Assembly (NCBI GenBank): GCA_000004695.1
Contig: CM000155.2
Span: forward strand, 2,912,001-2,976,000
Direction: 5' to 3'
DNA: 64,000 nucleotides
Source: Dictyostelium discoideum
Lineage: Eukaryota
Positions 34,849-63,733 of the stretch are shown here, piece by piece. How positions within the stretch are numbered: position 1 is the first letter of the stretch; every line of letters starts with the position of its first letter. The translations under genes and the position numbers were made by a program. The notes under the pieces were generated by a model. The model had not been told where the DNA came from, searched no databases, and was given only the letters and a program-made list of their open reading frames with translations.

Positions 34849-35689
34849 CACTCGTTCAGATTTATCAAGAAGAAATCCAAACAATTCTCATGTCCTTGCC
34901 GCAAGATTGGATGACTATGGTAGATACCATTATCAACAAGAACCATTATATCAAGATAAAATGGCTAAAGAAGCCTTCAAATTGGCTAAAGCTGAAAAGA
35001 AGAATGAATACGTTGCCAATAAAGCAGTACTTCAAAAAGAAGGTCTCATTAGAGCTGTTGAAAGAAATGATAAACTTAATAAAACTCAAATTGCACCTGA
35101 AAGACCAATTTTCAAGAATGATACTATGGTTATTGAAGAACCAGTGCTTACAAATACAATTGTTTACGAAACAGTTCCAACTACTTCAACTTCACAAATT
35201 TTAATTCCACAAGAAACAATCATTACTGAAAATAAAACATTTGAACAACCAACTTTAGAGAAACAAACAACTACAACAACCACCACTACTACAACATCAT
35301 CATCATCTGAAGGTAGCTCAAATGTTGCCCCTCCACAAGAAACTTTTGTTCCACAATTAGAAAAGGATGAAGCTCCAATTTATAGAGAAGAAGTTGTTTT
35401 GGTTCCACACATTGAAGAGGATACTTTTGATTCTGGTAATCAACAATTAAGTTATTCTGAAATTACTCAAGTTCCAGTTCAAATGACAAGTAGTGAATTT
35501 GGTGGTGGTGGTGGCAACAATAGTGGTTCTTCAGGTAGAAAAGGTAAAAAAGGTAAAAAACAACAATATCGTAAAGAAATCATTACAAAACAATCAACTG
35601 ATGGTGGTAAATCTTGGACAAATGATTCAAACTTGGCTGGTGATAATGTTGAATTTATTCAAGAACAAACAACAATTAGAAATCAATAA
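34849..35689 (+). CDS. Hypothetical protein, 5'-partial; the ORF is open from the gap edge. The annotated 'M' at 34907 is a TTG codon, so the real start is upstream in the gap. Lys/Glu-rich N-region, Thr-rich middle, GGGGNNSGSSGRKGKKGKK near the C-terminus.
   Basis: The reading frame is open from 34849 (first base after the Ns) to the TAA at 35689: '...RSDLSRRNPNNSHVLAARLDDYGRYHYQQEPLYQDKMAKEAFKLAKAEKKNEY...'. Codon usage is good. Confidence 0.5.
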
Positions 35690-36896
35690 ATTATTATTTA
35701 ATAAAAATATTTAATAAAATTTTATTAATATTTTTTTAATTTAATAATTTTTTTATTTATTTTTATCATCTTTATTATTATTAAAAAAAAAAAATATCAA
35801 TAAAATAGTCAAAAGAAAATTGATATTTAAAAAAAATAAAAATAATCATTAATTTATATTATAACGAATTTATTAACTAATATCAATAATTCGTTTTAAT
35901 ATTAAAAATAAAAAATAAAAAAATATAAAAAAAAATTTAATTATTATAATAAAAAAAAAATTAATAAAGCTTGTATAATTTTAATAATTTGTAATTAATT
36001 TATTTATATTTAAAGTAGGTTATTGTTTATATAATTACTAGTTAACGGATATTAATTTTGTTTAATCTATTTGAATCTACTATACTATATCCATTTTGAT
36101 TTCTTATAAATCAAATAAAATAATTACTAAAAAAAAAAAGTAAAAAATCAGGTGAAAAAAAAAGAAAAAAAAAAAAAAAACCCATTTTTATCTAACCAAA
36201 ACCATTTCATTACAAGTCAAATTTGATAATCTTTTAAATATGACAATATTATTTTATTTGAAAAAAAAAAAAAAAAAAAAAAAAAATTCACCCAAAATCG
36301 AATTAAAAAAAAAAAAAAAAAAAATTCAAACCAAATACCAAAGATTTCCCACCCCTAATTCTTAAAAAAAAAAAAAAAATTTAAAAAAAATTTTAAAAAT
36401 AAAAAACCCCTTTTAACATAAGGAATTTAAAATATTTAAATAAAAAAAACTTCCCCAAACTTATAACCCCCAATTTGCTCGACAATAATTAATTAATTAA
36501 TTAATTAAAATTTTTTTTTTTAATTTTTTTTTTTTTAATAATTAAAAAATAAAAAAAAAAAAACCCTTTTTTTTTTTTTTTTTTTTTTTTTGAAGGGAAA
36601 AATTAAAAATGAAAATTTAAAAATCCCGGGAAAAAATTTAAAAAAAAAAAAAAAATTTCCTTCCAAAAAAAAAAAATTAAAAATAAAAAATTCTGGGGGG
36701 GGGGAAAAAAAAAAACCCCCAAATTTTAAAAAAAAAAAGGGCCCCAAAATTTTAAAAAAAAAAAAAATTTTTTTTTTTTTTAAAAAAACCATAAATNNNN
36801 NNNNNNNNNNNNNNNNNNNNNNNNNNNNNNNNNNNNNNNNNNNNNNNNNNNNNNNNNNNNNNNNNNNNNNNNNNNNNNNNNNNNNNNNNNNNNNNN

Positions 36897-38768
36897 CAAA
36901 AATTGAAATTAATGGTAGTACTACTATACCCTTTGAGATCAAAAGAGGAGTTAAACAAGGAGATCCACTATCACCCACCCTGTTCGTCCTTGTAATAGAG
37001 GCTTTAGCTAGAAAAATTTTACAAGATGACCGAATTACTGGCCTTCCTCTAAACAACAGCAACCACAGAGAGAAATTCCAAAGCTTTGCAGACGACTCGG
37101 CTTCAATGGTCCCAGACTCTCAACAACTTGAATTAGTACTACAACACTTCAATTCGTTTTGCAAAGCCACTTCCTCAAAACTAAACATCGACAAATCTTC
37201 ATCAATTCTTATAGGCAACCCAGACAATACCAACCAAAGAATTCCAATATCTACAAATCCAGAAAGATACTTGGGATACTTCTTCACAGGCAAAGGGATA
37301 ACAAGAAAAATGCCAGAAATATTAAACACAATAAGATCATCCTTAGTACTATGGAAAACCACTGACTCAACAATCAAAACCAAAACCAACATCCTCAAAG
37401 CATTCGCACTCTCTAAATTAACCTACTATTCATATGTAGAGAAATTTAAGGAAGAGGAATTAAACCAAATCAATAAATTAGTCGAATGGTTTTTATCGGC
37501 ACCAAACAACAAAAATGCTAGTGGATTTCAAGTTATTAATTTAATGAGAACCAAAAGAGCAAGATACCCACTAAAAGTAGGAGGCTGGAACATTTGGAAT
37601 ATAGAATTGAGACAACTGGCGCAGAAACTTTGGATCATAAACCAATTCATCCTAGCACTAGAAACCAAACAAACAAACTCATCTCATTACAAAAGCTGGG
37701 AATATCAGATCCAAAAAAACAAATTCACATCCAGATACCTAAAAGAAAACTTAGACGAATGGAACAAAATAAGAATAAAAAAAGCAATCTTCAACAATAA
37801 TCTCACATCCATAAAAAACGAAAATGGACAACCACTTTCACTGGCAGAATGGTATACCACAATTCAAGACCAAAATCCAACCATCCCTAAAACGGAATTC
37901 CAATCATCTCTAAACTTAAGAGGCTACAGCTATAATCAACTCTTCAACAACATACTGAAGATAAAAGACCATAAAACAAGAGACACAATGTTTAGATTCC
38001 ATGCCAGATGCCTTCCAATAAACTACCTTCACAACAAACAATGCCCACTCTGCAAAGAAGATATGAGCAAAGACCCATACGGTCACCTGTTCTTCTCATG
38101 CAAGAAAACAAAACAATTCATAAAAATAAATAAACTCAAAAATTTCATCTATATTACCACAGGCAAAGGTAAAAACTGGCACCATACAAGAATTAGGCAA
38201 AATAACAATTTCATTAATAGAATAACTCCAAAATTATCACCGACAGCCAAAAAAGATCAAGAAGTGAATGCAGATTACGCCAACCACAGATTCCACAAAG
38301 AATACTTTGAATGGAACTATAAAGCAATAGACTATGATCTAACCAGATCATTCGCATATAGAAACCTAATGGCCCTTATCCTCCACAACATTTGGATTTG
38401 GATTTGCAATCAAATATACAGTGAAGATCCTTTAACAGATGAATCACTATCATACAGCTCCCTTCTAAAGAAATGGCACAAATTGGCCACTCTAGAATAC
38501 ATCAAAAAAGCAAAAGATCTGAAAAACTTATCAGCAAAAGACCATAATAACTTCAAAGATCCTAAGATCCTTCTCACTTCAACGATCAAGCTAAGAAAAA
38601 CAAAAGCTAATTACTATTGTATTCCAGAATCATCTCTCCCAAATATTATATCTTTTGATCAATTCATATGATTAAAATAACCCTTCAGCTTAAATGATAA
38701 GCCTTTAAATAAATATTAAATAAAACTCGTATTAACACAGATGGACATATATCAATCTTGTTAATCCA

Positions 38769-38800
<32 letters not shown>

Positions 38801-38810
38801 TTGTATTAAT
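36897..38810 (+). mobile_element. Non-LTR retroelement (TRE family, probably TRE3-type), 3' portion: ORF2 reverse-transcriptase C-terminal half to the stop at 38671, a 3'UTR and a poly(A) tail at 38775..38810. The 5' part is lost in the N-gap (36797..36896) and in a low-quality stretch.
   Basis: 'IKRGVKQGDPLSPTLFVLVIEAL' and 'FADDSA' are the RT B' and C motifs. A C-terminal Cys/His-rich segment follows (CPLCKEDMSKDPYGHLFFSCKK). The element ends in A33. A fragment of this same sequence recurs at 41788..42410, downstream of tRNA-Lys. Confidence 0.8.
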
Positions 38811-39995
38811 AATTTCCAAGCCCTTAGAGATTTACCAATTTGATTTATTTTAAATGAATTAACAGGAAAGTGAATCGATGAAAACTCTCCAGGTGTTTCA
38901 TTTTGAGAAATCATTTAATTTAAAAAAAAAAAAAAATATAATTGTTGGGCTTGTTTTCATTCTTTTTAAAAATATCATTATTACTAAAATCACCCATAAA
39001 TACACCATATAAACCTTATTTTCTTTTAAATTTATATCGAGTTATCAATAATTGATCATTTTTTTAACGAGATCCATTTAGGTATGTTATTTTTAGAATT
39101 TTAAAAATTATTTTTTTTTAAAAAAAAAAAACCAAAACAATCATAATTTAATATTAAAACTTATAAATAAAAACACTAAAAACACAAAAATTATGAATAA
39201 AAATAAAAATAGAAAAAAACAAATATAGATTTAAAATTCCAGTAACCATGGTAATTTATTAACCCGGATTAAAATATTATAATTGGGGATATTACATTTG
39301 GAAAATCTAAAAATTAATACCATTTTGAAAATTTACAAAAAAAAAAAAATAAAAATAGAATTAATCCCTGGTATTAATAAATAATAAAAAATTAAAAAAT
39401 AAAAATAAAAAATAATATTTTTTTAAAATAATGGGGATCATTATTTTTTTAATAAAAAAAAAGTGATTACCAATTTTAAAGAAAGAAACCAGGTTAAATA
39501 AATAATTAGTTTTTTTATTATCAAAGTTGAAAAATCTAAAATGACATTGAAAAGATATTATGATCTGGCCTATCACTTTTAATAATTTACTAAAATAGAA
39601 GATATTTTTTAACATGCGGCATAGGTTATTATAAAATTACAAAATGTCAGTAGTGGGCACAAAAATGAATAAAATTTAAATAAAATTTAAATAAAATTAA
39701 AATAAAAAAAATTAAAAAAATCTTGAAAAAAAAAAAAAAGATATTTTTCAAAAATTATAGGAATAATGGCTTTTCAAAAATAATTAATATGGTTAAAATA
39801 TCTAATTTTTCATTTTTTTTTTATTTTTTATTTTTTTTTATTTTTATTTTTTTTTTTAGATTAAAAAATATCTGATTTTATTAATTTTGATTATTTTTAT
39901 TTTTATCCTGGTATTTCTTTTTTTTTTAAAATAAAAACAAAATTTTTTTTTTTTTTTATTTTTTAATATTATATTTATTTTTGTATTTGTAAAAA

Positions 39996-41079
39996 ATGAG
40001 ATTATTTCTTTTATTAATTACTTTTATTGCATTATTTGGTGCTATTAATGCATTTTCAGGTGTTGATATTTCACAAGGAAGTTCTGTAGGTGATTTCCAA
40101 TGTATGCTAAATCAAGGTTTTGAATTTGCAATCATTAGGTAATTATACAATTTATTAAAAAAAAATAAAACTTGTTTTAAAATATTTAAATATATTAATT
40201 TATAATTCAAAATTATAGAGGTTATATGGAAACTGGTCAAGTTGATCCAGAAGTTGTAAACAGTATTGCATGTGCACGTGAAGCTGGTGTCGAATATGTT
40301 GATACTTATCTTTTCCCATGTAAGAATGAAATTATTTTAATTTTAAACTTTATTTAAATGTGAATAATAAATTTATTTACAATTATTTTTTTAAAACATT
40401 TTCAGGTTTTAATTGTGGTAACCCACAAGATCAAGGTCCAGCTTTAGTATGTTTTGATTTTTTTATAATAATAATTATTTTATTTAGAAATATATATATA
40501 TTAAAAACCAATTCTAATATATAATTTAAAATTATTAATAGGTTAACTACTTAAGTGGATACAATGCTAACTATGGTATGGTATGGTTAGATATCGAATC
40601 ATCAGATTGGAGTGGTGATCAATCAGTATGTATCAATAATAGTAAACTTTAGAGTCTTTCATTTTTTTATTTAAACTACTAATATTAAAAATTTAATTTA
40701 AATAGGCAAATGTTGCATTTTTTGAAGGCTTAATTTCAGGTTTACAAAGTGTTGGTGCTCATATTGGTGTATACACCTCAGCTTCACAATGGATTCCAAT
40801 CATGGGTGGTTATACTGGTGGTTCCGAATTCCCACTTTGGGTAAGTTGTTTTTTTTTTTTTTTTAATTTTTTATTATTTTATTATAGATTTTATAGTATT
40901 ATTCGATATTAATAAAAACTCTTTCATTCAACAACAACAACAACAATTAGTATGCCAATTGGGATGGAGTACAAAGTTTTGATGATTTTTCAGCATTTGG
41001 TGGTTGGAGCACTCCAGCAATTAAACAATATAATGATGGTGGTAGCAACTGTGGTGTTGGTTATGATTTTAATTGGTGA
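39996..41079 (+). CDS. GH25 (Chalaropsis/Entamoeba-type) lysozyme, secreted, about 210 aa, six exons: 39996..40138, 40219..40319, 40406..40446, 40542..40625, 40706..40840, 40951..41079.
   Basis: Signal peptide MRLFLLLITFIALFGAINA, then 'GVDISQGSSVGDFQCMLNQGFEFAIIRGYMETGQVDPEV...' (the GH25 N-terminal block G.D.S..QG.ID...). The C-terminus is 'YANWDGVQSFDDFSAFGGWSTPAIKQYNDGGSNCGVGYDFNW*'. All introns have GT(A/ATGT)...AG boundaries and the phases are consistent (2,1,0,0,0). Confidence 0.8.
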
Positions 41080-41775
41080 GTATTGAAAAAAAAAAAAAAA
41101 GATAAAAAAAAGATTAAAAATTTAAACAAATACTAACCATTTTATTATTCTAATTTGAAAACCAGGTATCCAAATTAATATTTTAATTTATATTTAATCA
41201 GATTGGTTAAAAATTTAAAATAAATATGTTAAATGGTTTTTATACAAGCATAAATATATTTTTTTATGTTTTAAATATCCTATTTTTAAAAAAAGATAAA
41301 TTGGTGGAATTATTATTGAACTTTTTTTTTTTTGTTGTTGTTGAGTAGTTTATGTTAACCTCATGATCCTTCTTTATATTTGGTGGGATTATAGGTTTAA
41401 TTCTTTTTTTTTTTTTTTTTTTTTTTATATTTGATCATTTTAATAAAAAAAAATTAATGCATTAATCAAATGATTTTTTTTTAAAGTTGATTGCAAATCC
41501 ATATCCATATCTGGTGAAATATCATTACTATCAAGTTTTTATATGAGAAATGTGATAATCTATAGCCTTGTAACACCATATGAAGTGAGGTTTATGAAAT
41601 CTTATATGAATGTAGTCAATGTTGATTTCATGGTCTTTCTTCATATTAGGAGGTATAATTGGTGTGATTTTGTTTGTTGTTTGTTGTTTATGATTGTTCC
41701 GCCTGTTAATTTGAAGATGAATCCTGTTAATTTGGTATTGTTAATATATGATTTGGGAGCACTTGTTCTGAAATA

Positions 41776-41787
<12 letters not shown>

Positions 41788-41823
<36 letters not shown>

Positions 41824-42410
41824 TGGATTAACAAGATTGATATATGTCCATCTGTGTTAATACGAGTTTTATTTAATATTTATTTAAAGGCTTATCATTT
41901 AAGCTGAAGGGTTATTTTAATCATATGAATTGATCAAAAGATATAATATTTGGGAGAGATGATTCTGGAATACAATAGTAATTAGCTGTTGTTTTTCTTA
42001 TCTTGATCGTTGAAGTGAGAAGGATCTTAGGATCTTTGAAGTTATTATGGTCTTTTGCTGATAAGTTTTTCAGATCTTTTGCTTTTTTGATGTATTCTAG
42101 AGTGGCCAATTTGTGCCATTTCTTTAGAAGGGAGCTGTATGATAGTGATTCATCTGTTAAAGGATCTTCACTGTATATTCAGAATTCCAATATCTACAAA
42201 TCCAGAAAGATACTTGGGATACTTCTTCACAGGCAAAGGGATAACAAGAAAAATACCAGAAATATTAAACACAATAAGATCATCCTTAGTACTATGGAAA
42301 ACCACTGACTCAACAATCAAAACCAAAACCAACATCCTCAAAGCATTCGCACTCTCTAAATTAACCTACTATTCATATGTAGTATATTGTATTTCAGAAC
42401 GGAAAAATAT
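41788..42410. mobile_element. Rearranged TRE retroelement fragment of about 620 bp, present only in copy 1. It comprises T30, the reverse complement of the element's 3' end (about 38416..38774), a forward internal ORF2 piece (about 37236..37438), then a 19-nt inverted copy of the target site.
   Basis: 41818..42180 is the reverse complement of 38416..38774. 42181..42381 matches 37236..37438. 42382..42400 'gtatattgtatttcagaac' is the reverse complement of the empty-site sequence 'gttctgaaatacaatatac' seen at 44861..44879. Confidence 0.8.
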
Positions 42411-42490
42411 AACTTTGCAGGTTAGTTTTCTTAATTTTATTATTTGTATGGTAAAGTCATTTGGGTCCTTTTACAATATCTTCATAGCCG

Positions 42491-42501
42491 GAGTCGAACA
42501 T
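42491..42501 (-). promoter_or_regulatory. Putative external B box of tRNA-Lys ('TGTTCGACTCC' on the minus strand), about 35 nt downstream of the tRNA 3' end. The same box is at 44953..44963 in copy 2.
   Basis: B-box-like GTTCGAnTCC outside the mature tRNA, as for the tRNA-Ile gene. Confidence 0.5.
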
Positions 42502-42533
42502 GCGATCTCAACTATACTCAGTAAAAATAATTC

Positions 42534-42606
42534 GCCCAACGGGGGGCTCGAACCCCCGACCACCAGATTAAGAGTCTGGCGCTCTACCGACTGAGCTAGC
42601 CGGGCA
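42534..42606 (-). tRNA. tRNA-Lys (anticodon CUU), 73 nt.
   Basis: Minus strand: 'GCCCGGCTAGCTCAGTCGGTAGAGCGCCAGACTCTTAATCTGGTGGTCGGGGGTTCGAGCCCCCGTTGGGCG'. It is near-identical to eukaryotic tRNA-Lys-CTT outside the anticodon stem, with a canonical cloverleaf and the anticodon loop 'CTCTTAA'. Confidence 0.9.
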
Positions 42607-43998
42607 TTTTTATGAATTTTCAATTAAAATACTGGTATACGTAATAAATTTACTCCAATTGAAAAAAGATGAGTTTACAGGTGAAGCAATTTATTTTATC
42701 CAAAAAAAAAAGGTCAAATAATTATCAATTTAATACACAAAAAATAAATAGTTTATTGTTGTCTCTTTCTTTTGAAATTAATAAAATATTTTAATTTAAG
42801 AGTTTTTATTTCAGATTTTTTGTTCAATTGCACAGAACAGAGATTTAAAATTGTGGTGTGGCAAATAAAAAAAAAAATTATGAGAAAATAGATTATAATA
42901 GCTTTTATTAAATTACACTTATTTATACATTGATATTTAAATAGAAAATCGATTTAATTTTAATTTTATGAGAATAATAATTTCAAATAACTAATCCTCC
43001 ATTTGGTTTTTGAAAAACTTCTAAATGTACAGAGTTTGAAGTGGGCTGAGTATTTAAATTTACAACACTTTTTGATTGATCTTTTTTTGTATTGATAAAA
43101 CTTGTTGTTTTAACTGATTTATTTTTTGCCAAACAATCTAACAAATTTTTAAATCAATATGTTAGAAAATAAATAAAATAAATTTTTGAAAAAAATAACT
43201 TAATTAGTTTACACACATACCGTAAATCATTTTTTAATAAATTTTTTAAATAAATAAAAAAATAAATAAATTATATAAATAAAATAAAATATAATAAAAT
43301 AAAATAAATAATTAAAAAACTAGTTTAATAAATAAATATTTTTTAAAAAATAGATTAAAAAAATTGTAAATAAATTTTTAAAAAATGAATAAAAAAAAAA
43401 AACAGAAAATTGAATTTAAATATTTTATTCTTTTATTTTTGTATTTTTTTAATTTTATAATTTTTTTTAATTGTTTATTTTATAAAATAATGAAAATATT
43501 AATTTAATATCCATATTTGTACTTTAAGATTATTATTTATAAATCTTGTGATTTTGTTTATTTAAATAATTATTTCAAAGAATTATAATATGAGTTTTTA
43601 AAATTAAGGCAATTATAGTACACTTTTACATATAATTATACAATAAATATTTTAATTTTTTATTTTAAAAAAAAAAAATATTTAAAAATAAATTAAAAAA
43701 AAAAAATAACCACTCTTACTATTTGTTTTTATTATAATAATAATCGAATTTTATTAATTTTGTTTTTATTTTAATATTTTGCTCTATATTGAATTTCAAA
43801 TTCCATACGTCCTTCATTGTTTTTTTTTTTTTACACAGAATAATAACTGATTAAGATTTTTTTTGTTTATTATTTTTAAAAAAAAAAAAAAGAAACAANN
43901 NNNNNNNNNNNNNNNNNNNNNNNNNNNNNNNNNNNNNNNNNNNNNNNNNNNNNNNNNNNNNNNNNNNNNNNNNNNNNNNNNNNNNNNNNNNNNNNNNN

Positions 43999-46364
43999 AT
44001 ATTAATAAAAACTCTTTCATTCAACAACAACAACAACAATTAGTATGCCAATTGGGATGGAGTACAAAGTTTTGATGATTTTTCAGCATTTGGTGGTTGG
44101 AGCACTCCAGCAATTAAACAATATAATGATGGTGGTAGCAACTGTGGTGTTGGTTATGATTTTAATTGGTGAGTATTGAAAAAAAAAAAAAAAGATAAAA
44201 AAAAGATTAAAAATTTAAACAAATACTAACCATTTTATTATTCTAATTTGAAAACCAGGTATCCAAATTAATATTTTAATTTATATTTAATCAGATTGGT
44301 TAAAAATTTAAAATAAATATGTTAAATGGTTTTTATACAAGCATAAATATATTTTTTTATGTTTTAAATATCCTATTTTTAAAAAAAGATAAATTGGTGG
44401 AATTATTATTGAACTTTTTTTTTTTTGTTGTTGTTGAGTAGTTTATGTTAACCTCATGATCCTTCTTTATATTTGGTGGGATTATAGGTTTAATTCTTTT
44501 TTTTTTTTTTTTTTTTTTTATATTTGATCATTTTAATAAAAAAAAATTAATGCATTAATCAAATGATTTTTTTTTAAAGTTGATTGCAAATCCATATCCA
44601 TATCTGGTGAAATATCATTACTATCAAGTTTTTATATGAGAAATGTGATAATCTATAGCCTTGTAACACCATATGAAGTGAGGTTTATGAAATCTTATAT
44701 GAATGTAGTCAATGTTGATTTCATGGTCTTTCTTCATATTAGGAGGTATAATTGGTGTGATTTTGTTTGTTGTTTGTTGTTTATGATTGTTCCGCCTGTT
44801 AATTTGAAGATGAATCCTGTTAATTTGGTATTGTTAATATATGATTTGGGAGCACTTGTTCTGAAATACAATATACTTTGCAGGTTAGTTTTCTTAATTT
44901 TATTATTTGTATGGTAAAGTCATTTGGGTCCTTTTACAATATCTTCATAGCCGGAGTCGAACATGCGATCTCAACTATACTCAGTAAAAATAATTCGCCC
45001 AACGGGGGGCTCGAACCCCCGACCACCAGATTAAGAGTCTGGCGCTCTACCGACTGAGCTAGCCGGGCATTTTTATGAATTTTCAATTAAAATACTGGTA
45101 TACGTAATAAATTTACTCCAATTGAAAAAAGATGAGTTTACAGGTGAAGCAATTTATTTTATCCAAAAAAAAAAGGTCAAATAATTATCAATTTAATACA
45201 CAAAAAATAAATAGTTTATTGTTGTCTCTTTCTTTTGAAATTAATAAAATATTTTAATTTAAGAGTTTTTATTTCAGATTTTTTGTTCAATTGCACAGAA
45301 CAGAGATTTAAAATTGTGGTGTGGCAAATAAAAAAAAAAATTATGAGAAAATAGATTATAATAGCTTTTATTAAATTACACTTATTTATACATTGATATT
45401 TAAATAGAAAATCGATTTAATTTTAATTTTATGAGAATAATAATTTCAAATAACTAATCCTCCATTTGGTTTTTGAAAAACTTCTAAATGTACAGAGTTT
45501 GAAGTGGGCTGAGTATTTAAATTTACAACACTTTTTGATTGATCTTTTTTTGTATTGATAAAACTTGTTGTTTTAACTGATTTATTTTTTGCCAAACAAT
45601 CTAACAAATTTTTAAATCAATATGTTAGAAAATAAATAAAATAAATTTTTGAAAAAAATAACTTAATTAGTTTACACACATACCGTAAATCATTTTTTAA
45701 TAAATTTTTTAAATAAATAAAAAAATAAATAAATTATATAAATAAAATAAAATATAATAAAATAAAATAAATAATTAAAAAACTAGTTTAATAAATAAAT
45801 ATTTTTTAAAAAATAGATTAAAAAAATTGTAAATAAATTTTTAAAAAATGAATAAAAAAAAAAAACAGAAAATTGAATTTAAATATTTTATTCTTTTATT
45901 TTTGTATTTTTTTAATTTTATAATTTTTTTTAATTGTTTATTTTATAAAATAATGAAAATATTAATTTAATATCCATATTTGTACTTTAAGATTATTATT
46001 TATAAATCTTGTGATTTTGTTTATTTAAATAATTATTTCAAAGAATTATAATATGAGTTTTTAAAATTAAGGCAATTATAGTACACTTTTACATATAATT
46101 ATACAATAAATATTTTAATTTTTTATTTTAAAAAAAAAAAATATTTAAAAATAAATTAAAAAAAAAAAATAACCACTCTTACTATTTGTTTTTATTATAA
46201 TAATAATCGAATTTTATTAATTTTGTTTTTATTTTAATATTTTGCTCTATATTGAATTTCAAATTCCATACGTCCTTCATTGTTTTTTTTTTTTTACACA
46301 GAATAATAACTGATTAAGATTTTTTTTGTTTATTATTTTTAAAAAAAAAAAAAAGAAACAAGTG
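43999..46364. repeat. Copy 2 of the duplicated segment. It starts exactly at the gap edge and lacks the TRE-fragment insertion. It includes a second copy of the lysozyme last exon (44044..44172) and of tRNA-Lys.
   Basis: See copy 1. Unique sequence resumes at 46365 ('gtggagattaaatat'). Confidence 0.85.
44996..45068 (-). tRNA. tRNA-Lys (CUU), second copy, identical to 42534..42606.
   Basis: Identical 73-nt sequence at an offset of 2462 bp. Confidence 0.9.
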
Positions 46365-46490
46365 GAGATTAAATATATTTTGTGTATTAACACTTTTAAG
46401 TATCATTTTTAAAAAAAAAAAAAAAAAAAAAATTGTAAAAAAAAAAAGAATTTATTTTGTTTAGAAAAACTTTTTTTTGTTTAATTATTA

Positions 46491-46523
<33 letters not shown>

Positions 46524-47521
46524 TTAAATAATAAAAAGTGGTATTTAATAATATAACAATATCAAAAGGGAAAAAAAAAAAGAAAAAAAAAAATAAAAAA
46601 AAAAAAGGAATGACAAAAAAAAAAAAAATTGGTATATTTATTTTGAAAAATTAATTTAAATCTTGCAATTACTTATCTTGATAATCAAATAAAAAAAAAG
46701 AAATTGTACAAATTAATAATGGCAATCTAACTAATAAATAAAATTCCACCCCCCCCCCTCTCTCTCCTTACAAAAGGATGAATCAGGTTGAAGGGGGTAT
46801 TATTTTTATATACATTTTTTTTAACAATCAATGTACATATAAAAAAAAAAAAAAAAATTATTATTTTCATTTTCCAATTCTTAATTTTTTGTATTGAAAC
46901 AAATTAAAAATAAATTTTGAAAAATTGAATTACTGAATTAGCTTACTTTTTTTGGTGTTTACCACAAAAAAAAAAAAAAAAAAAAAAAATGAAAATTAAT
47001 TTTTTTTTTTGAATTTTTTTATATGACAATTATAATAATAAGTATTAATCATGAAAAAAAACACAACCTAAAATTAAAAAGGGGGTTCGGGTTTATTTTC
47101 ACAGCTTGGTACAGATTTAAAAAAAGGAAAATAAAAAAAAAAACAAAATAAAAAACCCCCCCTTCCAAAAAAATATTACCCCCCAAAAAACAACATATTT
47201 AAAAAATTTATGGTTTTAAAAATCATTAATTTTAATAATTTTTTTTTATCCATTTTTTATTAATTTTTTTTTTTAAAAAAAAAAAATATTTTTAAATTCC
47301 CTTTAAACAAGGAATAAAAAATCAAATCAAAAAAAAAAAATTTACCTACAACTTTTTAGGGAAAGTTTTTTTATAGAAATTAAATTTTTATAAAAAAAAA
47401 AAAATTAGGAAAATTAAGAATTTAAAAATAAAATACCATTTCAAAAAAATATTTTTAACTTTTTAATTATAAAAAAATATCAAAAAATGAATTTAATTGG
47501 AAAGTTTAATTACATTTTTTA

Positions 47522-47571
<50 letters not shown>

Positions 47572-47995
47572 ATATACTAACTTTTGTTTTTTAATTTTTT
47601 TTTAAAAAAAAAGACTCTTTCAAAGATCTTAGTTTATCAAACGAAAATAAACAATTTTTAAATGTTAGAAATAATTCAAATAATGGATTTCACAATAATT
47701 TTACTTTAATAAAAAATCAAAACAATTCAGTTATTAGTAATAATCCAGTTATTGTTGTTTCTTTTATAAAATAATATTAAAATCAAGTAAAAAAAAAATA
47801 ATATATATGGAAATAGAAATGATTTTTAAAAAAAAATAATAATAATCAATATATATAGAAATAGAAATAATTAAAAAAAAAAAAAAAAAAAATAATGACA
47901 ATCCGAATCTAAAAAAAAAATGTTGTAAAAATAAAAATTAATTTATTTATTTATTTAAAAAATATAAACTTTTAATTAATTAATTAATTAATTAA

Positions 47996-48745
47996 TTATA
48001 AATATGGTTTTAATAAAATTAAATCTAATTGTGAAATTAAGTTATTTAAATTTTTTGGAGGTATACCTTTAAAATTATAACGAATTAATTTATCTTGATT
48101 TGATTGTAATCTTGATTTTATTCTTTTTACAATTTCTAAATTATGATGAATTGCATTTAAATTAATATCTATTGGATCATTTCTATTGTCTAATAGATAT
48201 AAGAATATTTCATCTCTTTTATGACGCAATGCTTGAATTGGTACTAATGATGAAATTGGATAAATATTCAACTCTGTTAAATATTGAACCAATGCTAAAC
48301 TATCACTTGTTACAGCATTCTCCATAATGAAATTATTATCAATTAATTTATTTAACCCTCCATCTACACCATTTTGATGAATAAATTTCATAAATTCTAA
48401 ATCACCCCTATTAGCAATGAATTCACCAACTAATTTATCATTCCAAAGGAAATTCTCTTTAAAATTATAATAAAGATATTTAAATAATTCAAAATTTTCA
48501 CATGCTAATCTAATACCATATTTATATAAAAAATCATTATTATTATTATTATTATTTGAATTATTACTATTTTTATTTATTGCTGTTGAATTTCTAATAA
48601 TCTTTTTTACAAATTCAAATTCTTTATATTTTAAAATATATTGAAATCCAATTCTAACTTTATCTTTTTCTTTTAAATTTTCTTTTATTCCTTTTTTATA
48701 TAAAAAATTAAAAATAAATAATTTTTTAATATCTTTGTCTTCCAA
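47996..48745 (-). CDS. Hypothetical protein, 249 aa, with possible ankyrin-like helical repeats. The start is within 40 bp of an N-gap, so the N-terminus may be incomplete.
   Basis: ORF with repeated '...G(D/N)LEF(M/V)K(F/Y)(I/L)...NG.D...L...A...' segments (FIANRGDLEFMKFIHQNGVDGGLNKLIDNNF; NAVTSDSLALVQYL), flanked by AT-rich DNA. Confidence 0.45.
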   Translation of the reverse strand: MEDKDIKKLFIFNFLYKKGIKENLKEKDKVRIGFQYILKYKEFEFVKKIIRNSTAINKNSNNSNNNNNNNDFLYKYGIRLACENFELFKYLYYNFKENFLWNDKLVGEFIANRGDLEFMKFIHQNGVDGGLNKLIDNNFIMENAVTSDSLALVQYLTELNIYPISSLVPIQALRHKRDEIFLYLLDNRNDPIDINLNAIHHNLEIVKRIKSRLQSNQDKLIRYNFKGIPPKNLNNLISQLDLILLKPYL

Positions 48746-48883
48746 TTCATTTAAATTATTTAAATTTAAAATTTTTAAAGTTGNNNNNNNNNNNNNNNNN
48801 NNNNNNNNNNNNNNNNNNNNNNNNNNNNNNNNNNNNNNNNNNNNNNNNNNNNNNNNNNNNNNNNNNNNNNNNNNNNNNNNNNN

Positions 48884-48924
<41 letters not shown>

Positions 48925-49149
48925 TAAATATTTTTTTGGTAAATTAAAAATAAATAAATAAATAAAATAAAAAATATTATTAAAAAAATAAAATATATCC
49001 ATTTATATTATTATTTTTATTTTTAATAAAAGTTTTTTGTTTTTCCAATATTTATTTATTATATTATATTATTATTATTATAAATATTTTTTTATTTTTA
49101 TTATTATTATTAATATTTTTTTATTTTTATAATTTTTATTATTAGGTGG

Positions 49150-49939
49150 TTAATCAAAAGAAACATAATATTTTTTAATTTCATAAGAAATTTCAGTTTC
49201 AGCCAAATAGAAAGGACTTGTTTTCAAATTTTTAAAATATTTTAGAATGATTTGGGTGAATTGTTTATAGCAATTGAATAGTTTATCAAGAATCATTTGA
49301 AAGATTTTCATACCATTTTTAAAGTTTGGAAATTGTTGAGTGACTATTACATTCATTTCTTCGATACCAGATCTCCAATTTTGATAAAATTGTTTCAATA
49401 TTTCTTCAAGTATTTCTTTCTTCAATTGTGGATGGTTAATTTCTTCCAACGTATATAAACCAATCAATGGATACAAATCTCTAACAGTTGTAATAACATT
49501 TTTAAAATATACAAATGAAACCAATTGTTCTAAACAATATTGTTCAGCTTCTTTTTCAAATAATAAAATCCAATAATCTTTATCTTCATTACCGCTACCA
49601 ATAAATTCATTTTCATTATTATTATTATTATCATTATTATTTTCATCATTTTTATTACTATTATTACCATTAATTTTATTATTATTATTATTATTATTTA
49701 CAATATTATTATTACTATTTAATTTATCAGTTAAAATTGTTAAAATTAAATCAAAATTATTTAATCTAAAAATTAATTTTGAAAGATGATTTGATTTTAA
49801 ATCATCAGATAGTCTATTAATTAATTTATACATTTCAACTCTCATTATTGCTAAATTTTCATTAATTATTGAATGTGATTCTTTAATATTAAATAATAAA
49901 TGATCATTATCCGTATTAATTAAATCATTATTATTATTG

Positions 49940-49980
<41 letters not shown>

Positions 49981-51780
49981 ATTATTAAAATTATATAAAA
50001 CTGAAAATGAACCAATTAATTCACTATATCTTCTAACAACATAATGAGGTCTATTTTCTTCAATTGGTGATAAATCTTTAACATTTGCATCTCTAATAGA
50101 TTGAATATTCTCTTCGAATAATATTGTTAATCTTGATAGAGTTGAATTAATAATGAATTGAAATAATCTATCAGTACAATCTGATTTGAATTGAATTTTA
50201 CTTCTATATTTACTAGTGATTGATAATATTAATAACAAAGCCACTATATCATAAGTTGATGCTAAATAACCATTTAAATTCTCCATAAATAATGATTCTG
50301 ATTTACAAAATAAAAAAGTAGAACTATCTTTATTTGATAGGAAATAATCCTTTAGAAACATATTTTCATATGATACTAAATCAATGATAAAGAATAACAA
50401 TGATCTGAATATAACTTCATAGGAATATTTTATAGAGTCAGAGGCAGAGGAAGATTCGAAATTGATAGATTGGGGTTTTAATGGTGGAGTTTCGAGTTCA
50501 TTTAAAATCTGATACCTAGTTTCAATGGTGTAAATGGATGATTTACACTTTAATTTATTACTTTTACTCGAGAAGAATCCCCTGGTTTTACTCTCGTGCA
50601 TACCAATTAAATCATTTCTTGATGTTGGTTCCATTTGAAGTTTCTCCAAGAATGTTATATAACTTCTATAATAGGATGAATAGATTCTTTCAGCAATCTC
50701 TTTATATTGATCGAATAGAATTCTAGCAACACGTCTAGTATGTTTATAGAGGAATATAAATGCTTGTCTGTATAGGGTGAATTCTTGTTGTTTCGATTGC
50801 AACGATTGTATATCCTTGATTTGGTTGAATTGTACCATGAAAAACCTATGAATCTTATCCAAAACCACGTTCAACAGTTTCAGTGTCACCTCTTCAATTT
50901 CACCCGTTGCAAAGACTCCATCGATCTTTTGTGACGATATGTGGCCTATCTTCTTACTGAATATTGAAAGATATTGAAGATACTGATCGTTAACCTCACC
51001 TTGTGTCAATAGGTGTATCAAATCATCCGATATCGAAACCTCCTCTATAATCTTATCCAATCGTTCCACCACCTTCTTCCTATTGACACATTTGGAATTC
51101 TGTGTAATCGATAACTCTTGTAAATTTCTCATTTCTTTTGAAATGTTTGTTAATTCACCTTGAAATTTACTTAACATATCTTCGAAACCACTCAATAGAT
51201 CAGTACTCTCTGTTATGGTTTTATAAAGTATTGCAAATGTTTCCCTCTCATTAACATAATCTGGTATAATATCTTGATAAAGTTCATTCATCTCCTTATC
51301 ACATCTCTCTAACGATTCACCAACTTCTTTTGAAAATTTACTTAAATCAATACCCTTATCCAAACAATTTGCTATAACTTGCTCATCCTTTGCATAGCGT
51401 TCAATTTGATTTTCAAAATCTTCCATACCCTCTCCCATTATATTGATTGTTGTTAAATCTAAATCAAATTTAAATTCCATATTGTCATCTTTTTCAATTT
51501 GTTCTTTATTATTTGTATTGTTACTATTATTTTGATTTTTAGATTTTTTTGAAATTTCTATTGATTGTAAACTATTTGATAATGAATTTGTATCATCATC
51601 ACTTATAAATTCATTATTTGTTGTTACTGCTTCATCTTCTTCGTGATGACGAAATCCTTTACTTGTACCATTTAATTCTTTATCAAATACTTCATCAAGA
51701 TTTGAACCTGTATTTTTATTATTTTTTAAATTATTATTATTATTATTTGTATTATTATTATTATTACTATTATTATTCAT
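49150..51780 (-). CDS. vps52: VPS52 (GARP/EARP complex subunit, Sac2 family), 876 aa, single exon, with poly-Asn insertions.
   Basis: 'KDEQVIANCLDKGIDLSKFSKEVGESLERCDKE...LSKFQGELTNISKEMRNLQELS' aligns with human VPS52 'EDELVKEALKTGVDLRHYSKQVELELQQIEQKS...LGAFQSDLSSISSEIRTLQEQS'. 'EIAERIYSSYYRSYITFLEKLQ...DLIGMHESKTRGFFSSKSNKLKCKSSIYTIETR' aligns with 'ETLSKIYLSYYRSYLGRLMKVQ...DLMGVEDTAKKGFFSKPSLRSRNTIFTLGTR'. Confidence 0.85.
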
Positions 51781-52406
51781 ATTTTATATTTTTCACACTG
51801 AGTTGAAAATGTGAATTGCAAAAAATAAAAAAAATAAAAAAAAAAATAAAAAATTAAAAAATAAAAAAATAAAAAAAAAATCCAACAAAATTTTATTTTT
51901 TTATTATTAATAAAATATTTTCTATTTTTTCCATAAATTAATTTAAAATGAAAAAAAGTATTTAAATGAAAAAATAGAAAATATTTAATTAATAATAAAA
52001 AAATTATTCCCCTTACTTTTGGAGTTTATTTTTTTTTTTTTCCTTTTAAAGTAATCTATCAAAAATTTTATTATTAACCATAGTGATTTAAATTTTAAAT
52101 ACAACCTAAACAATATCTCCTAAATGGTGTGTATCTCCTTTCAATTTTTTTTTTTTTTTTTTGTTTATTTAACATTATTTTAAATAATTTCTTTGAATAA
52201 ATTCATCAAAATTTTGTGAGTTTGGAAAAAAAAAAAAAAAAATAAAAATAAAATAAAAAAAAAAAATAAAAAATAAAAAAAAAAGTGTGTTCATAAAATT
52301 TAATTTAAAAAAAAAAAAACAAATTTCAAAAAAAAAAAAAAAAAAAAAAAAACAACACACATAACACAAAAATACAAATAATTTTAAAAATATATATAAT
52401 ATAATA

Positions 52407-53415
52407 ATGAGTGATCATAGTGAAGCCATTGCAACATTTCAATCAATTACAGGTGCATCAAAAGAAGAATCTACATTTTATTTAGAGAGTCATGATTGGG
52501 ATTTAGAAGTAAGATTTTATTATTCTTAATTTTTTATCACTTTTTTATTTTTTTTTTTTTTTTTTATCCTAAATTATTTATTTTTTTTTTTTTTTAAAAA
52601 AATTAAAGAAAGCAGCACAAACTTTTACAACATTACAAGAAGAAGAAAATCAAAGAAATGATCAACCACAAATTGAAGAAGATTATGAAGATGAGGAAGA
52701 GGAAGATGATCATAGAGATCCAATGCCAGCATCAAGACCAGTATATAGTAAACCAGTTGCAAAAACTGTTAGTAAGAAAGCACCAGCAGGTGGTAGAGTA
52801 GGTGGTATTAGAACATTATCAGATTTCAATAATGATGATCATGATGATCATGATCATAGTGATGGTGATGATGATGAAGATGACAGATCTCAACAATATT
52901 TCACTGGTGGTGAAAAGAGTGGTTTGGTGGTTGAAAGTGCACCAAAGAAAGGTAAAAACGGTGGTAGTGGTGATATTGTAAACGATGTATTCGATAGTGC
53001 CAAAAGACATGGTGCTGTTGCATCCAATGAAAAGAAAGTTGAAAAACCAGATTCATTCGATAGTGTTGGTTATCAATTGGGTGCCACTGATCAAGGTAAT
53101 CGTAATGTAAGCAAACCAAAGGAAAAAGATCCAAATTCTCAAGTCGTAGAAGTTAAAGTCACCTTTTGGAATCAAGGTTTCACCATTGATGATGGTCCAC
53201 TTCGTAAGTATGATAATCCAGAGAATAAAGAATTACTCGATGATATTCAAAGGGGTATTGTACCACGTGAACTTCAAAAAAAAGCAACCACTCCAAATGG
53301 TTTATCTGTAACTTTGATAAATAATCATAATCAAGATTATGTTGAACCAGCAAAACCAAAATATGTTGCATTCTCTGGTGGTGGTCAAACTTTAGGTAGT
53401 TCTTCCACCTCAACA

Positions 53416-53447
<32 letters not shown>

Positions 53448-53754
53448 CAATAGAGCAACCACTACTTCAACTACTACAACTTCAACACCAAATGTATCAT
53501 CAATCAATGTAGATCAATCACAACCAACAACAACAGTTCAAATTCGTTTAGCAAATGGTTCAAGACTTTCAACAACCTTTAATCACTCTCATACCCTTCA
53601 AGATGTTATTAATTATATCAATAGCTCAAGTGGTTCAAATCAATCTTTTGATCTTTTAACTGGTTTCCCTCAAAAACCAGTCACAAACCCAACTTCAACA
53701 ACTTTAAAAGATGCTGGTTTATTAAATGCTTTATTAATTCAAAAATTAAAATAA
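52407..53754 (+). CDS. p47/NSFL1C-like p97 (Cdc48) cofactor with UBA-like, SEP and UBX domains. Exons 52407..52508 and 52609..53754.
   Basis: Exon 1 'MSDHSEAIATFQSITGASKEESTFYLESHDWDLE' is the UBA-like N-domain (p47: ...[24 protein letters not shown]). The SEP domain is 'VTFWNQGFTIDDGPLRKYDNPENKELLDDIQRGIVPRELQ' (p47: [40 protein letters not shown]). The C-terminal UBX is 'TTVQIRLANGSRLSTTFNHSHTLQDVINYIN...FDLLTGFPQKPV'. The intron has a GTAAGA donor and an AAAG acceptor, phase 0. Confidence 0.85.
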
Positions 53755-53852
53755 ATAATATTAAAATAATATGAAATAAATAAAAATAATAATAATAATG
53801 ATAATGATAATAATTGAATCCAGTTTTTAGTTGTTTGGTAATTATTTGTTTT

Positions 53853-54947
53853 TTATTCATCTTTTGATTTGTTTTTTTCTTTTTTATCTTTTTTTACTTT
53901 CTTTTTATCATCTTTAGAGGATGATTCACTCTTTTCTTTTTTATCCTTTTTATCTTTTTTATCTTTCTTTTCTACTTTTTCTTCATTATCTTTTGAAGAT
54001 TTACTCTTTTTCTTTTCTTTTTTATCTTTTTTTACTTTCTTTTCATCATCATCATCATTGTCATCGTCATCTGAATTTGATTTTCTTTTTTCTTTTTTAT
54101 CTTTTTTTTCTTTCTTTTCTTTCTTTTCTTTTTTATCTTTATTATCTTTTTTAACATGTTCCATTTCATTTTGATCATTATCTTTATAATTAATATTTTC
54201 ATTTTCATTTTCTAATCTTTGTTTTTTAGTATTTCTTAATTCATCTTTTTCTTCAACTAATTTTCTTTTAAAATCTTCATATTTTTGACCACCATCACCT
54301 TTTAATAATGATGGATCATAACGACCTTCATCTTGAGCTTTTAATCTTTCTAATTTACCAATTGGTGCATATTTTCTAAGAGTTCTACCTTTACATGCTT
54401 CAAATTCTTCTTGAAGTCTTTTAGAAGAATCAAAATTTAATTTTGATTTTAATTTATCATTTTCTCTTTTAATTGATTCTAATCTTTCTGTCTCTTCTTC
54501 TTTATTTCTTTTTTCAGTTTCTTCAATACTTTCTAAAGTTTCACTCTCTAATATAAATGATGATTTCTTAAATTGACCAAATACTAATGTTTTATTTTCT
54601 TCTTCTTTTTTATTTACTTCTTTTGTAATTTCATTCATAATTTTATCTTTTTTATTATTTTTACTTTTAATTCCACCTTTACATGATAAATTATTATCAT
54701 TATCATTATTATTATTGTTTTTGTTTTTATTATTATTAACTTTATCATTTTCATTATCAGTATCATCATCACTTTTTTTACTATTATTTACATCTGATCT
54801 TGATTCAAAAAGTTCATTTTGTTCTTCTGATCCTATTTTTTTATTATCCCAAACTCTATCCCACCAATTATTATCATGTTGAAATCCTGTACTACCAACC
54901 TATAAAATAAATAAAAAAATAAAAAAAAAGAATATTGTTAATAAAAC

Positions 54948-54978
<31 letters not shown>

Positions 54979-56721: not shown

Positions 56722-56919
56722 ACAATTCTCCCTTATATAATAAAAAAAAGCTTTTCAAAAAAAAAAAAAAAAAAAAAAACCATATATTCATGTGTATACA
56801 TATTCACAATATTTAATATTTTTATTTTTCAATATTTTATTGATTACCAATTTGTTTTATTTATTTAATTTTAAAAATTTTATTTATTTATTATTATTTA
56901 ATATTGAAAATTTTATTTA

Positions 56920-60338: not shown

Positions 60339-60386
<48 letters not shown>

Positions 60387-60529
60387 GAAAAAAAAAAACA
60401 TTAATAAAACTTAATAACAATAAATAGTTTACAGATATTTTAAATATTATATATATACATATATGCAAAATTTTTAAATTGTATCAATATTTTGATAAAT
60501 ACAAATAAAAGTTTTATAGAAGATTAGAA

Positions 60530-63733
<3,204 letters not shown>

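Follow-up and report, generated by a model that had tools for sequence, protein, structure and literature searches.

A rearranged TRE3-type insertion bordered by an inverted copy of its target site downstream of a tRNA-Lys gene in Dictyostelium discoideum

How does a fragment of a non-LTR retrotransposon come to lie beside an inverted, rather than a direct, copy of its own target site? The question is raised by a TRE insertion next to a tRNA-Lys gene of Dictyostelium discoideum, located in a stretch of 64,000 nucleotides (contig CM000155.2, positions 2,912,001 to 2,976,000; the whole stretch is referred to as the window), in which the same flanking sequence is also found empty. An initial annotation of the window had described a target, a T run, an inverted TRE 3′ end, a forward ORF2 piece, an inverted target, and a filler, and all of these parts are present. 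The insert comprises 634 bp, is made up of a head-to-head rearranged TRE3 fragment, and lengthens the locus by a net 630 bp compared with the empty version (offsets of 3093 and 2463, respectively). On the + strand, the target GTTCTGAAATACA is followed by T41, a 361-bp inverted TRE 3′ end, and an orphan C, and these by 202 bp of forward ORF2, a 20-nt inverted target copy, a filler of 11–12 nt, and the right flank. The features of the filled and empty versions are as follows.

40906–43898, unstranded: end of the contig 36897–43898, overlapping 43999–46361 (the start of the contig 43999–48783) and differing from it only by the insertion
41765–41777, + strand: left target flank, GTTCTGAAATACA; the identity with 44858–44870 of the empty allele stops exactly at 41777, and T41 comes next
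41778–41818, − strand: poly(A) tail of the inserted element, T41 on the + strand (measured run length)
41819–42179, − strand: 3′-terminal part of a TRE3-type element (ORF2 end and 3′ UTR) in sense, 361 nt, 99.4–99.5% identity
42180, unstranded: orphan nucleotide (C on the + strand) at the head-to-head inversion junction, fitting neither element segment
42181–42382, + strand (sense): internal ORF2 piece of 202 nt (RT region), inverted, 99.5% identity with 1 mismatch
42381–42400, − strand: inverted target copy (GTTCTGAAATACAATATACT on the − strand), matching 44877–44858 at 20/20 positions
42401–42411, unstranded: filler, GGAAAAATATA; as a 12-mer without a second occurrence in the window or the compared loci
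42412–42531, + strand: right (tRNA-proximal, reciprocal) flank; identity with the empty allele is back at 42412, corresponding to 44875
42532–42606, − strand: tRNA-Lys(CTT) gene targeted by the insertion (ARAGORN)
44858–44877, + strand: target site without insertion, located 125 bp downstream of a tRNA-Lys gene (44995–45069) and identical to the ACTFIT site at L003 11770–11789

At the left junction, we infer that the 3′ end of GTTCTGAAATACA served as the first-strand primer in target-primed reverse transcription (TPRT), with the nick placed between ACA and ATATAC. The adjoining tail had been given as T30, and the measured run is 41 nt long. The 361-nt segment behind it has the orientation of the tRNA-Lys gene and is the reverse complement of 38413–38773 in a neighbouring TRE copy, equivalent to positions 2635–2995 of the TRE in locus L003; the BLAST match of this inverted 3′ end extends over 388 bp, including part of the A/T tail, with 2 mismatches. 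The 202-nt piece is in sense on the + strand, which makes it antisense to the poly(A) segment, and equals window positions 37238–37439 (L003-TRE 1460–1661). In the element, it belongs 973 nt further 5′ than the 3′ segment; the intervening positions 1662–2634 are missing. The letters of the head-to-head junction are ATATT-C-AGAATTCC, with an EcoRI site 1 nt inside the start of the 202-nt piece. No microhomology was found at this junction, the nearest 8-nt similarity being 6–18 nt off the junction and out of register.

The other end of the 202-nt piece meets the target-derived DNA. The 19-mer GTTCTGAAATACAATATAC had been recognized as the inverted target, and it is indeed the exact reverse complement, but the copy is really 20 nt long and its first two bases are shared with the element. 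The dinucleotide AG (+ strand, 42381–42382) is common to the element end and the inverted copy and constitutes a 2-nt microhomology; this 5′-junction microhomology involves target DNA that is itself inverted. The copy spans 13 nt to the left and 6–7 nt to the right of the first-strand nick, and ends 13 nt from the nick. The 19-mer has two occurrences in the window and none more (0 matches in 100 shuffles). When it was searched for as a possible part of the element, it was not found in the 2995 bp of TRE sequence, whereas the target sequence is present both in the empty allele and at an independent empty site (ACTFIT, L003 11770). Judging from this distribution, the inverted 19-mer is target-derived.

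The right junction can be read in two ways. In the ungapped reading, the left side breaks off at 44870 and the right flank picks up at 42412 (equivalent to 44875), with the loss of four target bases (ATAT); the gapped reading yields one extra A, not a four-base loss. A direct target-site duplication (TSD) is found under neither reading, gapped or ungapped, so that the target borders the fragment in inverted and not in direct orientation, as the initial annotation had maintained together with the point, which also holds, that ordinary TPRT does not predict such a border. As for the filler, its 10–12-mers were not found in the TRE copy or near the insertion site. The possibility that it represents a degenerate direct TSD was tried and rejected: the best right-anchored edit distance is 4, a value equalled by random 12-mers of the window and by shuffles (P = 0.16–0.39), and the longest common subsequence is 11/12 (P = 0.03–0.06 against random 12-mers and shuffles). 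Nor was a surviving palindrome or hairpin at the right junction supported: the minimum free energy is −2 kcal/mol (z = −0.46 against shuffles), as against −15.4 kcal/mol expected of a perfect 19+19 palindrome.

The element can be compared with a neighbouring TRE3 copy (window 36897–38800; L003 5784–8805). This copy lies 81 bp downstream of its tRNA gene in the orientation of the tRNA, with the poly(A) distal to the tRNA, and is 5′-truncated, co-linear, and flanked by an 8-nt direct TSD (AATTGTAT). It matches the Pfam family RVT_1 (E = 2e-10) and has RT-domain homologues in D. discoideum, which carry the database names ‘hypothetical protein’ or ‘reverse transcriptase domain’ only; of the other domains of a TRE3 ORF2, the APE endonuclease part is absent from the truncated TRE copies, and no zinc-finger family was reported. 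The insertion under study resembles this canonical TRE3 in its location downstream of a tRNA gene, its tRNA orientation, its tRNA-distal poly(A), and its 5′ truncation, and AATACAAT is found in the first-strand nick regions of both; it differs in being rearranged and without a direct TSD. The insert departs from the neighbouring copy by 3 substitutions, including one M-to-I change that two other copies lack, and so did not arise as an assembly copy of this neighbour. Three further TRE3 fragments are contained in the window and the compared loci, too few for a frequency of rearranged copies.

tRNA genes are recurrent targets of TRE3, which would suit a history of two events, in which an older insertion or repair patch left the ORF2 piece, a 5′-truncated TRE3 was later placed beside it, and a deletion or inversion came after. 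However, the empty allele and the ACTFIT site bear no trace of an older fragment, both pieces are equally near (99.4–99.5%) to the same neighbouring copy, the forward piece has no poly(A) and would point in the direction not used by TRE3, and such a sequence of events gives no account of the inverted target copy; we regard such a history as highly improbable. Reverse transcription of an RNA that was already rearranged (a 5′-inverted donor) was likewise considered and rejected, because the flank of the donor would have to equal this unique target.

In its position, the insertion follows the behaviour of the family. TRE3 integrates 40–150 bp downstream of tRNA genes and in the same orientation (PMC5911963), and at least one TRE is present at 61% of the D. 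discoideum tRNA genes (PMC5006619). In the empty allele, 125 bp separate the first-strand nick (44870) from the 3′ end of tRNA-Lys(CTT) (44995), a distance within the above range. The poly(A) segment and the tRNA gene share the − strand, with A41 distal to the tRNA, and the 202-nt piece runs opposite. [quoted passage not shown] At the orthologous tRNA-Lys gene of divergent strains, an independent TRE3-like fragment is present.

The filled and empty versions were taken by the initial annotation as two genomic copies (‘copy 1’ and ‘copy 2’). In the base-by-base comparison that it had proposed, the two are identical apart from the insertion (872/872 and 1487/1487 bases; 0 differences in 2359 bp). 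The N100 gap at 43899–43998 adjoins both boundaries of the duplication, and no other gap with duplicated flanks was found in the window. In the independent D. discoideum assembly GCA_054883475.1, the locus is single-copy and empty, and otherwise identical to the window save for two bases at the contig start and one low-complexity patch; the contigs here form a patchwork in the scaffold, in an order that conflicts with that assembly. From the complete identity, the gap-abutting ends, and the single empty copy in GCA_054883475.1, it follows that ‘copy 1’ and ‘copy 2’ are probably the same locus of AX4 chromosome 6, carried by two overlapping contigs that were not merged, so that one locus assembled twice across a gap is a more likely description than two genomic copies. 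If so, the allele with the insertion would be recent and either unfixed or specific to a clone. It is apparently not fixed in the lineage, being absent from the near-identical independent assembly, and this absence suggests an insertion that is young or subclonal; the empty site in GCA_054883475.1 is no proof of a heterogeneous AX4 culture. Look-ups by exact product gave no match for the junction-spanning ORFs (42139–42594 and 44636–44917), nor for P0001, the 249-aa ORF, or the AX4 lysozyme protein.

The same layout would arise if a unit of about 2.5–3 kb, containing the 3′ end of the lysozyme gene and the tRNA-Lys gene, had recently been duplicated in AX4 and one of the copies then hit, with the tandem junction hidden in the gap. 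Laboratory stocks of D. discoideum often carry duplications, some with ends near tRNA/TRE3 clusters (PMC2643946), but those known are at least 15 kb and not 2.5 kb in size. A true duplication is also at odds with the one copy in GCA_054883475.1, with the lack of any difference over 2359 bp, with homology boundaries that coincide exactly with the gap edges on both sides, and with the patchwork scaffold, whose contig order disagrees with the other assembly. We consider it improbable.

The concern that the assembly is chimeric was justified in part, as the duplication looks artefactual; yet the four junctions of the insertion cannot be reached by repeat-driven misassembly. A cloning artefact is a different matter. 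A simple 5′-truncated TRE3 insertion, or none, could have undergone rearrangement when cloned in E. coli or through chimeric ligation, and the product could have blocked the merging of the contigs. AT-rich Dictyostelium DNA is unstable in E. coli, the filled version stands only at one contig end in a gap-rich region of draft quality, the insertion is lacking in the independent assembly, and the EcoRI site is situated 1 nt from the start of the forward piece. Against this, E. coli cannot make a poly(A) tail joined precisely at the canonical TRE3 target position, and a random chimera would have to be composed of six fragments, including an inverted junction piece of 18–20 nt, between adjacent genomic flanks. 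Furthermore, the junctions, with 0–2 nt of microhomology and single extra bases, are like TPRT/NHEJ products, and the libraries of the genome project were reportedly prepared from sheared DNA, not from EcoRI digests. An origin in cloning therefore seems to us quite improbable.

Taken with moderate confidence, the reading that we prefer is that of a real but aberrant TRE3-type integration at the normal target window, in a single-copy locus that would be represented twice, filled and empty, across the N100 gap. The joining of a sense 3′ segment with poly(A) to an inverted piece from further 5′ in one element is the hallmark of twin priming or template switching. In twin-primed human LINE-1 (L1) insertions, as described in PMC2912911 and PMC11702581, the inverted segment comes from further 5′ and microhomology is seen at the 5′ junction; according to PMC11702581, most L1 twin-priming breakpoints have a deletion or duplication of 1–10 nt between the segments. 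The insertion agrees with the model of Ostertag and Kazazian in its poly(A)-bearing sense 3′ segment lying head to head with an inverted more-5′ segment, in the 2-nt microhomology where the inverted segment meets target-derived DNA, and in the 0–1 extra nt at the inversion junction, which fits end joining or template jumping.

In other respects the two are different. A direct TSD of 12–18 bp is missing here, and four target bases (in the ungapped reading) are lost with an inverted target copy in its place; the segments are 973 nt apart in the RNA, compared with within about 10 nt; and the element is an APE-type, tRNA-gene-targeted Dictyostelium retrotransposon. The absence of a direct TSD and the distance between the cDNA segments are departures from two defining features of classical twin priming and count against the preferred reading. 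The explanations put forward by the initial annotation, namely twin priming, template switching, and hairpin or fold-back repair, cannot be told apart by sequence alone. In addition, one pair of nicks cannot place target of + polarity covalently 5′ of antisense cDNA, and an extra step is needed, for instance the copying of a flap, the use of a second target molecule, or the capture of a fragment.

A precedent for the inverted target copy exists in human cells. Inverted DNA at the reciprocal end of L1 is reported for three cases obtained under induced L1 expression in the preprint by Mendez-Dorantes et al. (PMC11702581, Fig. S9 and Fig. 8A), whose authors explain it by processing of the DSB end before ligation. 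Going by that description, the cases are similar in that a short target stretch is inverted beside the retrotransposed sequence at the non-poly(A) end, and they differ from the present one, in which the flap is combined with a 5′-inverted element segment. In our case, the 20-nt exact copy covers the presumed 13-nt flap and a further 6–7 nt past the first nick. Our literature search found no report of an inverted target flap outcome or of twin priming in Dictyostelium, and nothing on an ‘inverted TSD’ for non-LTR elements.

Snap-back synthesis in alternative end joining (SD-MMEJ or polymerase theta type) inserts an inverted copy of break-flanking sequence, with short microhomologies and filler. 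The inverted flank copy at the repair junction, with its short microhomology and filler, is shared with the present insertion. On the other hand, snap-back synthesis produces a copy on the same strand as its template and separated from it by a loop, whereas here the direct arm is not recognizably kept and the copy is fused to a reverse-transcribed segment.

For the preferred reading of an aberrant TRE3-type integration, the following course may be proposed. A nick made by the element endonuclease in the + strand (ACA^ATA) would be followed by reverse transcription primed on poly(A), and the resulting cDNA1 would halt after 361 nt. A cut of the − strand about 13 nt away (GAAC^AAGTG) would then leave a 3′ flap on the tRNA-proximal (reciprocal) end, and this flap, made a few nt longer by 5′ resection, might be copied or inverted to give a reciprocal end of GTTCTGAAATACAATATAC-3′. 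Paired over 2 nt with an internal position in the RNA that templated cDNA1, the reciprocal end could prime the 202-nt cDNA2 in the manner of twin priming. Finally, the 3′ ends of the cDNAs would be joined via template jumping or end joining with the addition of one untemplated base.

The second primer might instead stem from a sister chromatid. Two TPRT events of the same polarity could start at nicks ACA^ATA and, 6–7 nt further on, ATATAC(T)^TTG, the second of them priming internally; the second flap (19–20 nt of target and the 202-nt cDNA) would be cleaved at the boundary of single- and double-stranded DNA, and the 5′ junction of the first event would then capture it in inverted orientation. 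Such a course accounts directly for the nick-spanning + strand target covalently 5′ of antisense cDNA and for the abrupt end of the target between CACTT and GTTCTG, and Dictyostelium cells are in G2 for most of the cycle. For L1, cleaved cDNA flaps are reported to be captured, and retrotransposition to occur on both sister chromatids at once (PMC11702581). The scheme nevertheless demands two coordinated events plus flap cleavage and capture, a broken sister chromatid would remain and have to be repaired or be lost, and the sequence gives no distinction from flap copying on one chromatid. We view it as unlikely. As a still tentative specification of the aberrant integration, TRE3 may possibly have transposed during the culture of AX4 for the genome project, with an inverted flap, tRNA-proximal or from the sister chromatid, as the second primer.

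By analogy, the scar is to be seen as a rare abortive integration of a kind known from human LINE-1. It would represent a sequence-resolved aberrant TPRT product outside mammals, which combines a 5′ inversion with an inverted reciprocal-end target flap, at a defined locus with a perfect empty-site control, and suggests that such intermediates may be general to APE-type non-LTR elements. The apparently unmerged contig pair of AX4 chromosome 6 would account for two phantom genes, a second tRNA-Lys gene and a partial lysozyme gene, and the insertion gives a hint of recent TRE3 movement in the AX4 lineage. If transposition in the AX4 culture proved true, the insertion would be the first evidence of LINE-1-like abortive, rearrangement-prone TPRT in a tRNA-targeted amoebozoan retrotransposon, and TRE3, besides TRE5-A, would be mobile in laboratory strains.

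The filled version of the site (40906–43898), on chromosome 6 of D. discoideum AX4 and carrying a fragment of the tRNA gene-targeted retrotransposon TRE (TRE3), is followed across an N100 gap (43899–43998) by an empty version (43999–46361). Compared with the neighbouring TRE copy (36897–38800), the insertion and its borders are composed as follows:

41765–41777, + strand reading: left flank, ending in GTTCTGAAATACA
41778–41818, + strand reading: T41 run
41819–42179, reverse complement: last 361 nt of the TRE-type element (38773 to 38413 of the neighbouring copy)
42180, + strand reading: single orphan C
42181–42382, forward: ORF2 piece of 202 nt (37238–37439 of the neighbouring copy)
42381–42400: exact reverse complement of the target, 20 nt, its first two bases (AG) common to the element
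42401–42411, + strand reading: filler GGAAAAATATA
from 42412, + strand reading: right flank

On the − strand (element orientation), starting from the tRNA side, the product reads CCTGCAAAGT-TATATTTTTCC-GTTCTGAAATACAATATAC, antisense 202 nt, G, sense 361 nt, A41, and TGTATTTCAGAAC. Against the empty version (44858–44884), the left flank ends at 44870 and the right flank restarts at 44875, with four target bases missing at the site, and comparison of the two versions reveals no direct target-site duplication (TSD) around the insertion. The inverted 19-mer occurs at only two sites in 64 kb (0 matches in 100 shuffles), bearing out the initial annotation of a rearranged fragment beside an inverted target; its layout also holds, the run given there as T30 measures T41, and the exact lengths, the orphan base and the microhomology are added here. 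A possible origin of the 19-mer within TRE, named there as the refuting case, was searched for: the 2995 bp of TRE searched (locus L003 of the independent assembly, 5784–8778), covering a full-length element except for its 5′ ~2 kb, do not contain the 19-mer, which the empty allele and the independent assembly's empty site both contain. Where it starts in the insert, the neighbouring TRE copy reads on as AGAAATTT... The inverted 19-mer does not appear to be element-derived. The likeness of the 11–12-nt filler to a direct target copy was not significant, and folding of the right junction was no better than in shuffled controls.

A tRNA-Lys(CTT) gene was located by ARAGORN on the − strand at 42532–42606 and at 44995–45069, and the gene at 39996–41181 gives a spliced product identical to GH25 lysozyme 4 (Q54BQ8). 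The poly(A)-primed junction of the insertion lies 125 bp downstream of tRNA-Lys(−), past an external B box-like motif, with the poly(A) segment oriented like the tRNA gene. Both position and orientation match the published TRE3 rules, namely integration 40–150 bp downstream and in tRNA orientation (PMC5911963; PMC5006619). The neighbouring TRE copy contains a reverse-transcriptase domain, its nearest relatives being D. discoideum RT-domain proteins; in the independent assembly it is located 81 bp downstream of another tRNA-Lys(+) and shares its orientation, carries a poly(A) tail and is flanked by an 8-nt direct TSD. Because the insert differs from this copy at three positions, the assembler did not copy it from there. 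Convergent tRNA-Lys(CTT) genes of L003, 5628–5702 (+) and 11907–11981 (−), flank the neighbouring TRE3 and the lysozyme gene; since the corresponding contig of the window begins within TRE, the (+) gene is missing there.

The external B box-like motif GGAGTCGAACA (42490–42500 and 44953–44963, 32–42 bp downstream of tRNA-Lys) is the reverse complement of a GGTTCGANNCC-type B box at 10/11 positions, and is kept as AGAGTCGAACC in L004 and L005, divergent 'D. discoideum' loci from assemblies with ~88% identity in intergenic DNA. Downstream of the orthologous tRNA-Lys(−), these loci hold a TRE3-like 3′ fragment in the same orientation (L004 11540–11880; L005 11545–11885); it is older and diverged, and its T-run has decayed. 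TRE3 has therefore targeted this tRNA gene repeatedly. In addition, AATACAAT is found in both TRE3 first-strand nick regions, 44866–44873 and 38801–38812 (− strand), the nick positions being ATACA^ATATAC at the studied insertion and ATACAAT(T)^ATTTTT at the neighbouring copy; with n = 2, this may reflect chance or an endonuclease preference.

The empty version had been taken as a second genomic copy. The stretches 40906–41777 and 42412–43898 are, however, identical to 43999–44870 and 44875–46361, respectively (2359/2359 bases), and the homology starts at the first base past the N100 gap and stops at the last base ahead of it; duplicated sequence flanks no other gap within the window. We fetched the locus from four other Dictyostelium assemblies via the lysozyme protein. 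In the key one, L003 (ACTFIT, D. discoideum, GCA_054883475.1), the locus is single and the site empty, and the sequence is identical to window 36897–48783 save for two bases at the contig start and the low-complexity patch 47082–47532, with the following correspondence:

window 36897–41777: L003 6902–11782
window 42406–43898: L003 11782–13273
window 43999–48783: L003 10911–15689

Each of the three more divergent assemblies has a single tRNA-Lys(−) past the lysozyme gene. In the simplest reading, contigs 36897–43898 and 43999–48783 would overlap by ~2.4 kb, left unmerged because one holds a 630-bp net insertion, and the tandem duplication, including the second tRNA-Lys(CTT) (44995–45069) and a partial lysozyme gene (exons 44044–44272), is probably an assembly artefact. 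The gap could conceal the junction of a real AX4-specific tandem duplication, which is improbable beside a complete, gap-bounded identity.

Repeat-driven misassembly joins reads at repeats they share; the four junctions of the insertion have ≤2 nt in common at each. To form by ligation, a chimera would have to combine six fragments between adjacent genomic flanks, one of them an 18–20-nt inverted piece from the junction itself. Poly(A) attached at a canonical TRE3 target position bears the mark of target-primed reverse transcription (TPRT), a process of the amoeba rather than of E. coli. On these three grounds, the insertion is very probably biological. The ORF2 piece starts 1 nt ahead of an EcoRI site (GAATTC, 42182–42187), which bears on a cloning artefact as the rival origin and is judged a coincidence in AT-rich DNA. 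Since a near-identical independent genome lacks the insertion, while the AX4 assembly has both filled and empty versions, it appears to be recent: subclonal in the sequenced culture, or present in one DNA source only or in few clones.

Twin priming, template switching and a fold-back repair intermediate had been proposed as mechanisms, all reasonably. The hallmarks of twin priming, an inverted more-5′ segment ahead of a sense poly(A) segment and microhomology at the target DNA (PMC2912911; PMC11702581), are both present (inverted 5′ segment, 2-nt microhomology), but the direct TSD of classical twin priming is absent, and 973 nt of the RNA lie between the two segments, outside the classical spacing (1–10 nt between segments in most L1 cases; PMC11702581). 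Given this distance, cDNA1 ended early. The real oddity of the insertion is the primer of the inverted cDNA. In classical twin priming, the − strand 3′ end (here ...TGTATTTCAGAAC-3′) is the primer; in this insertion it is the complementary + strand sequence, which reaches 6–7 nt across the first nick and has its other end exactly 13 nt to the opposite side of that nick, plausibly at the second-strand cut position. A single pair of nicks is insufficient for this product, and one extra step is needed. [quoted passage not shown] Alternatively, a second TPRT may have begun on the sister chromatid, with capture of its cleaved flap, or a small double-stranded fragment may have been cut out and religated inverted; sequence alone does not discriminate among these three candidates. 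Template jumping by the reverse transcriptase and end joining could each account for the single extra base at the inversion junction and for the 2-nt overlap.

Around the locus, the scaffold is plainly a patchwork. In the independent assembly (JBTAPE010000034.1; loci L001 and L003), 48884–61796 is placed ~13 kb ahead of 36897–48783, not after it, and 10542–14668 is inverted, ~5 kb ahead of 48884; L003 1–6901 and 15690–21084, both flanks of the locus, are missing from the window. The explanation is either a wrong contig order in this part of the AX4 scaffold or a structural difference between the strains. The AT-rich patch 47082–47532 holds all 32 substitutions and the 6-nt indel between AX4 and ACTFIT over 43999–48783, the differing bases in ACTFIT being nearly all A or T; one of the two assemblies probably has a consensus or polishing error here. 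The contig end at 36590–36796, ahead of the gap at 36797, resembles a low-quality read tail (K, G, F and P runs in translation), and the next contig, beginning within the TRE copy, has two mismatches to ACTFIT (36900/36919) among its first 23 bases. The short contig 34849–36796 lies between two gaps and contains a 260-aa ORF (34907–35689); nothing equivalent is present beside the TRE/lysozyme locus of the independent assembly, and the AX4 scaffold probably has this contig in the wrong place.

Among described cases, those obtained with induced human L1 resemble this insertion most closely. We found no paper on twin priming in Dictyostelium or on an inverted TSD for non-LTR elements, and the study of TRE5-A de novo integration does not mention inversions. 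Three points are new. What had been counted as a second copy is most likely one locus that was assembled twice; the insertion is unfixed or very recent; and its structure fits a class of aberrant TPRT outcomes that is rare but has been described before, with a TRE3 element as the source here. The finding is of some practical use to those who curate the AX4 reference.
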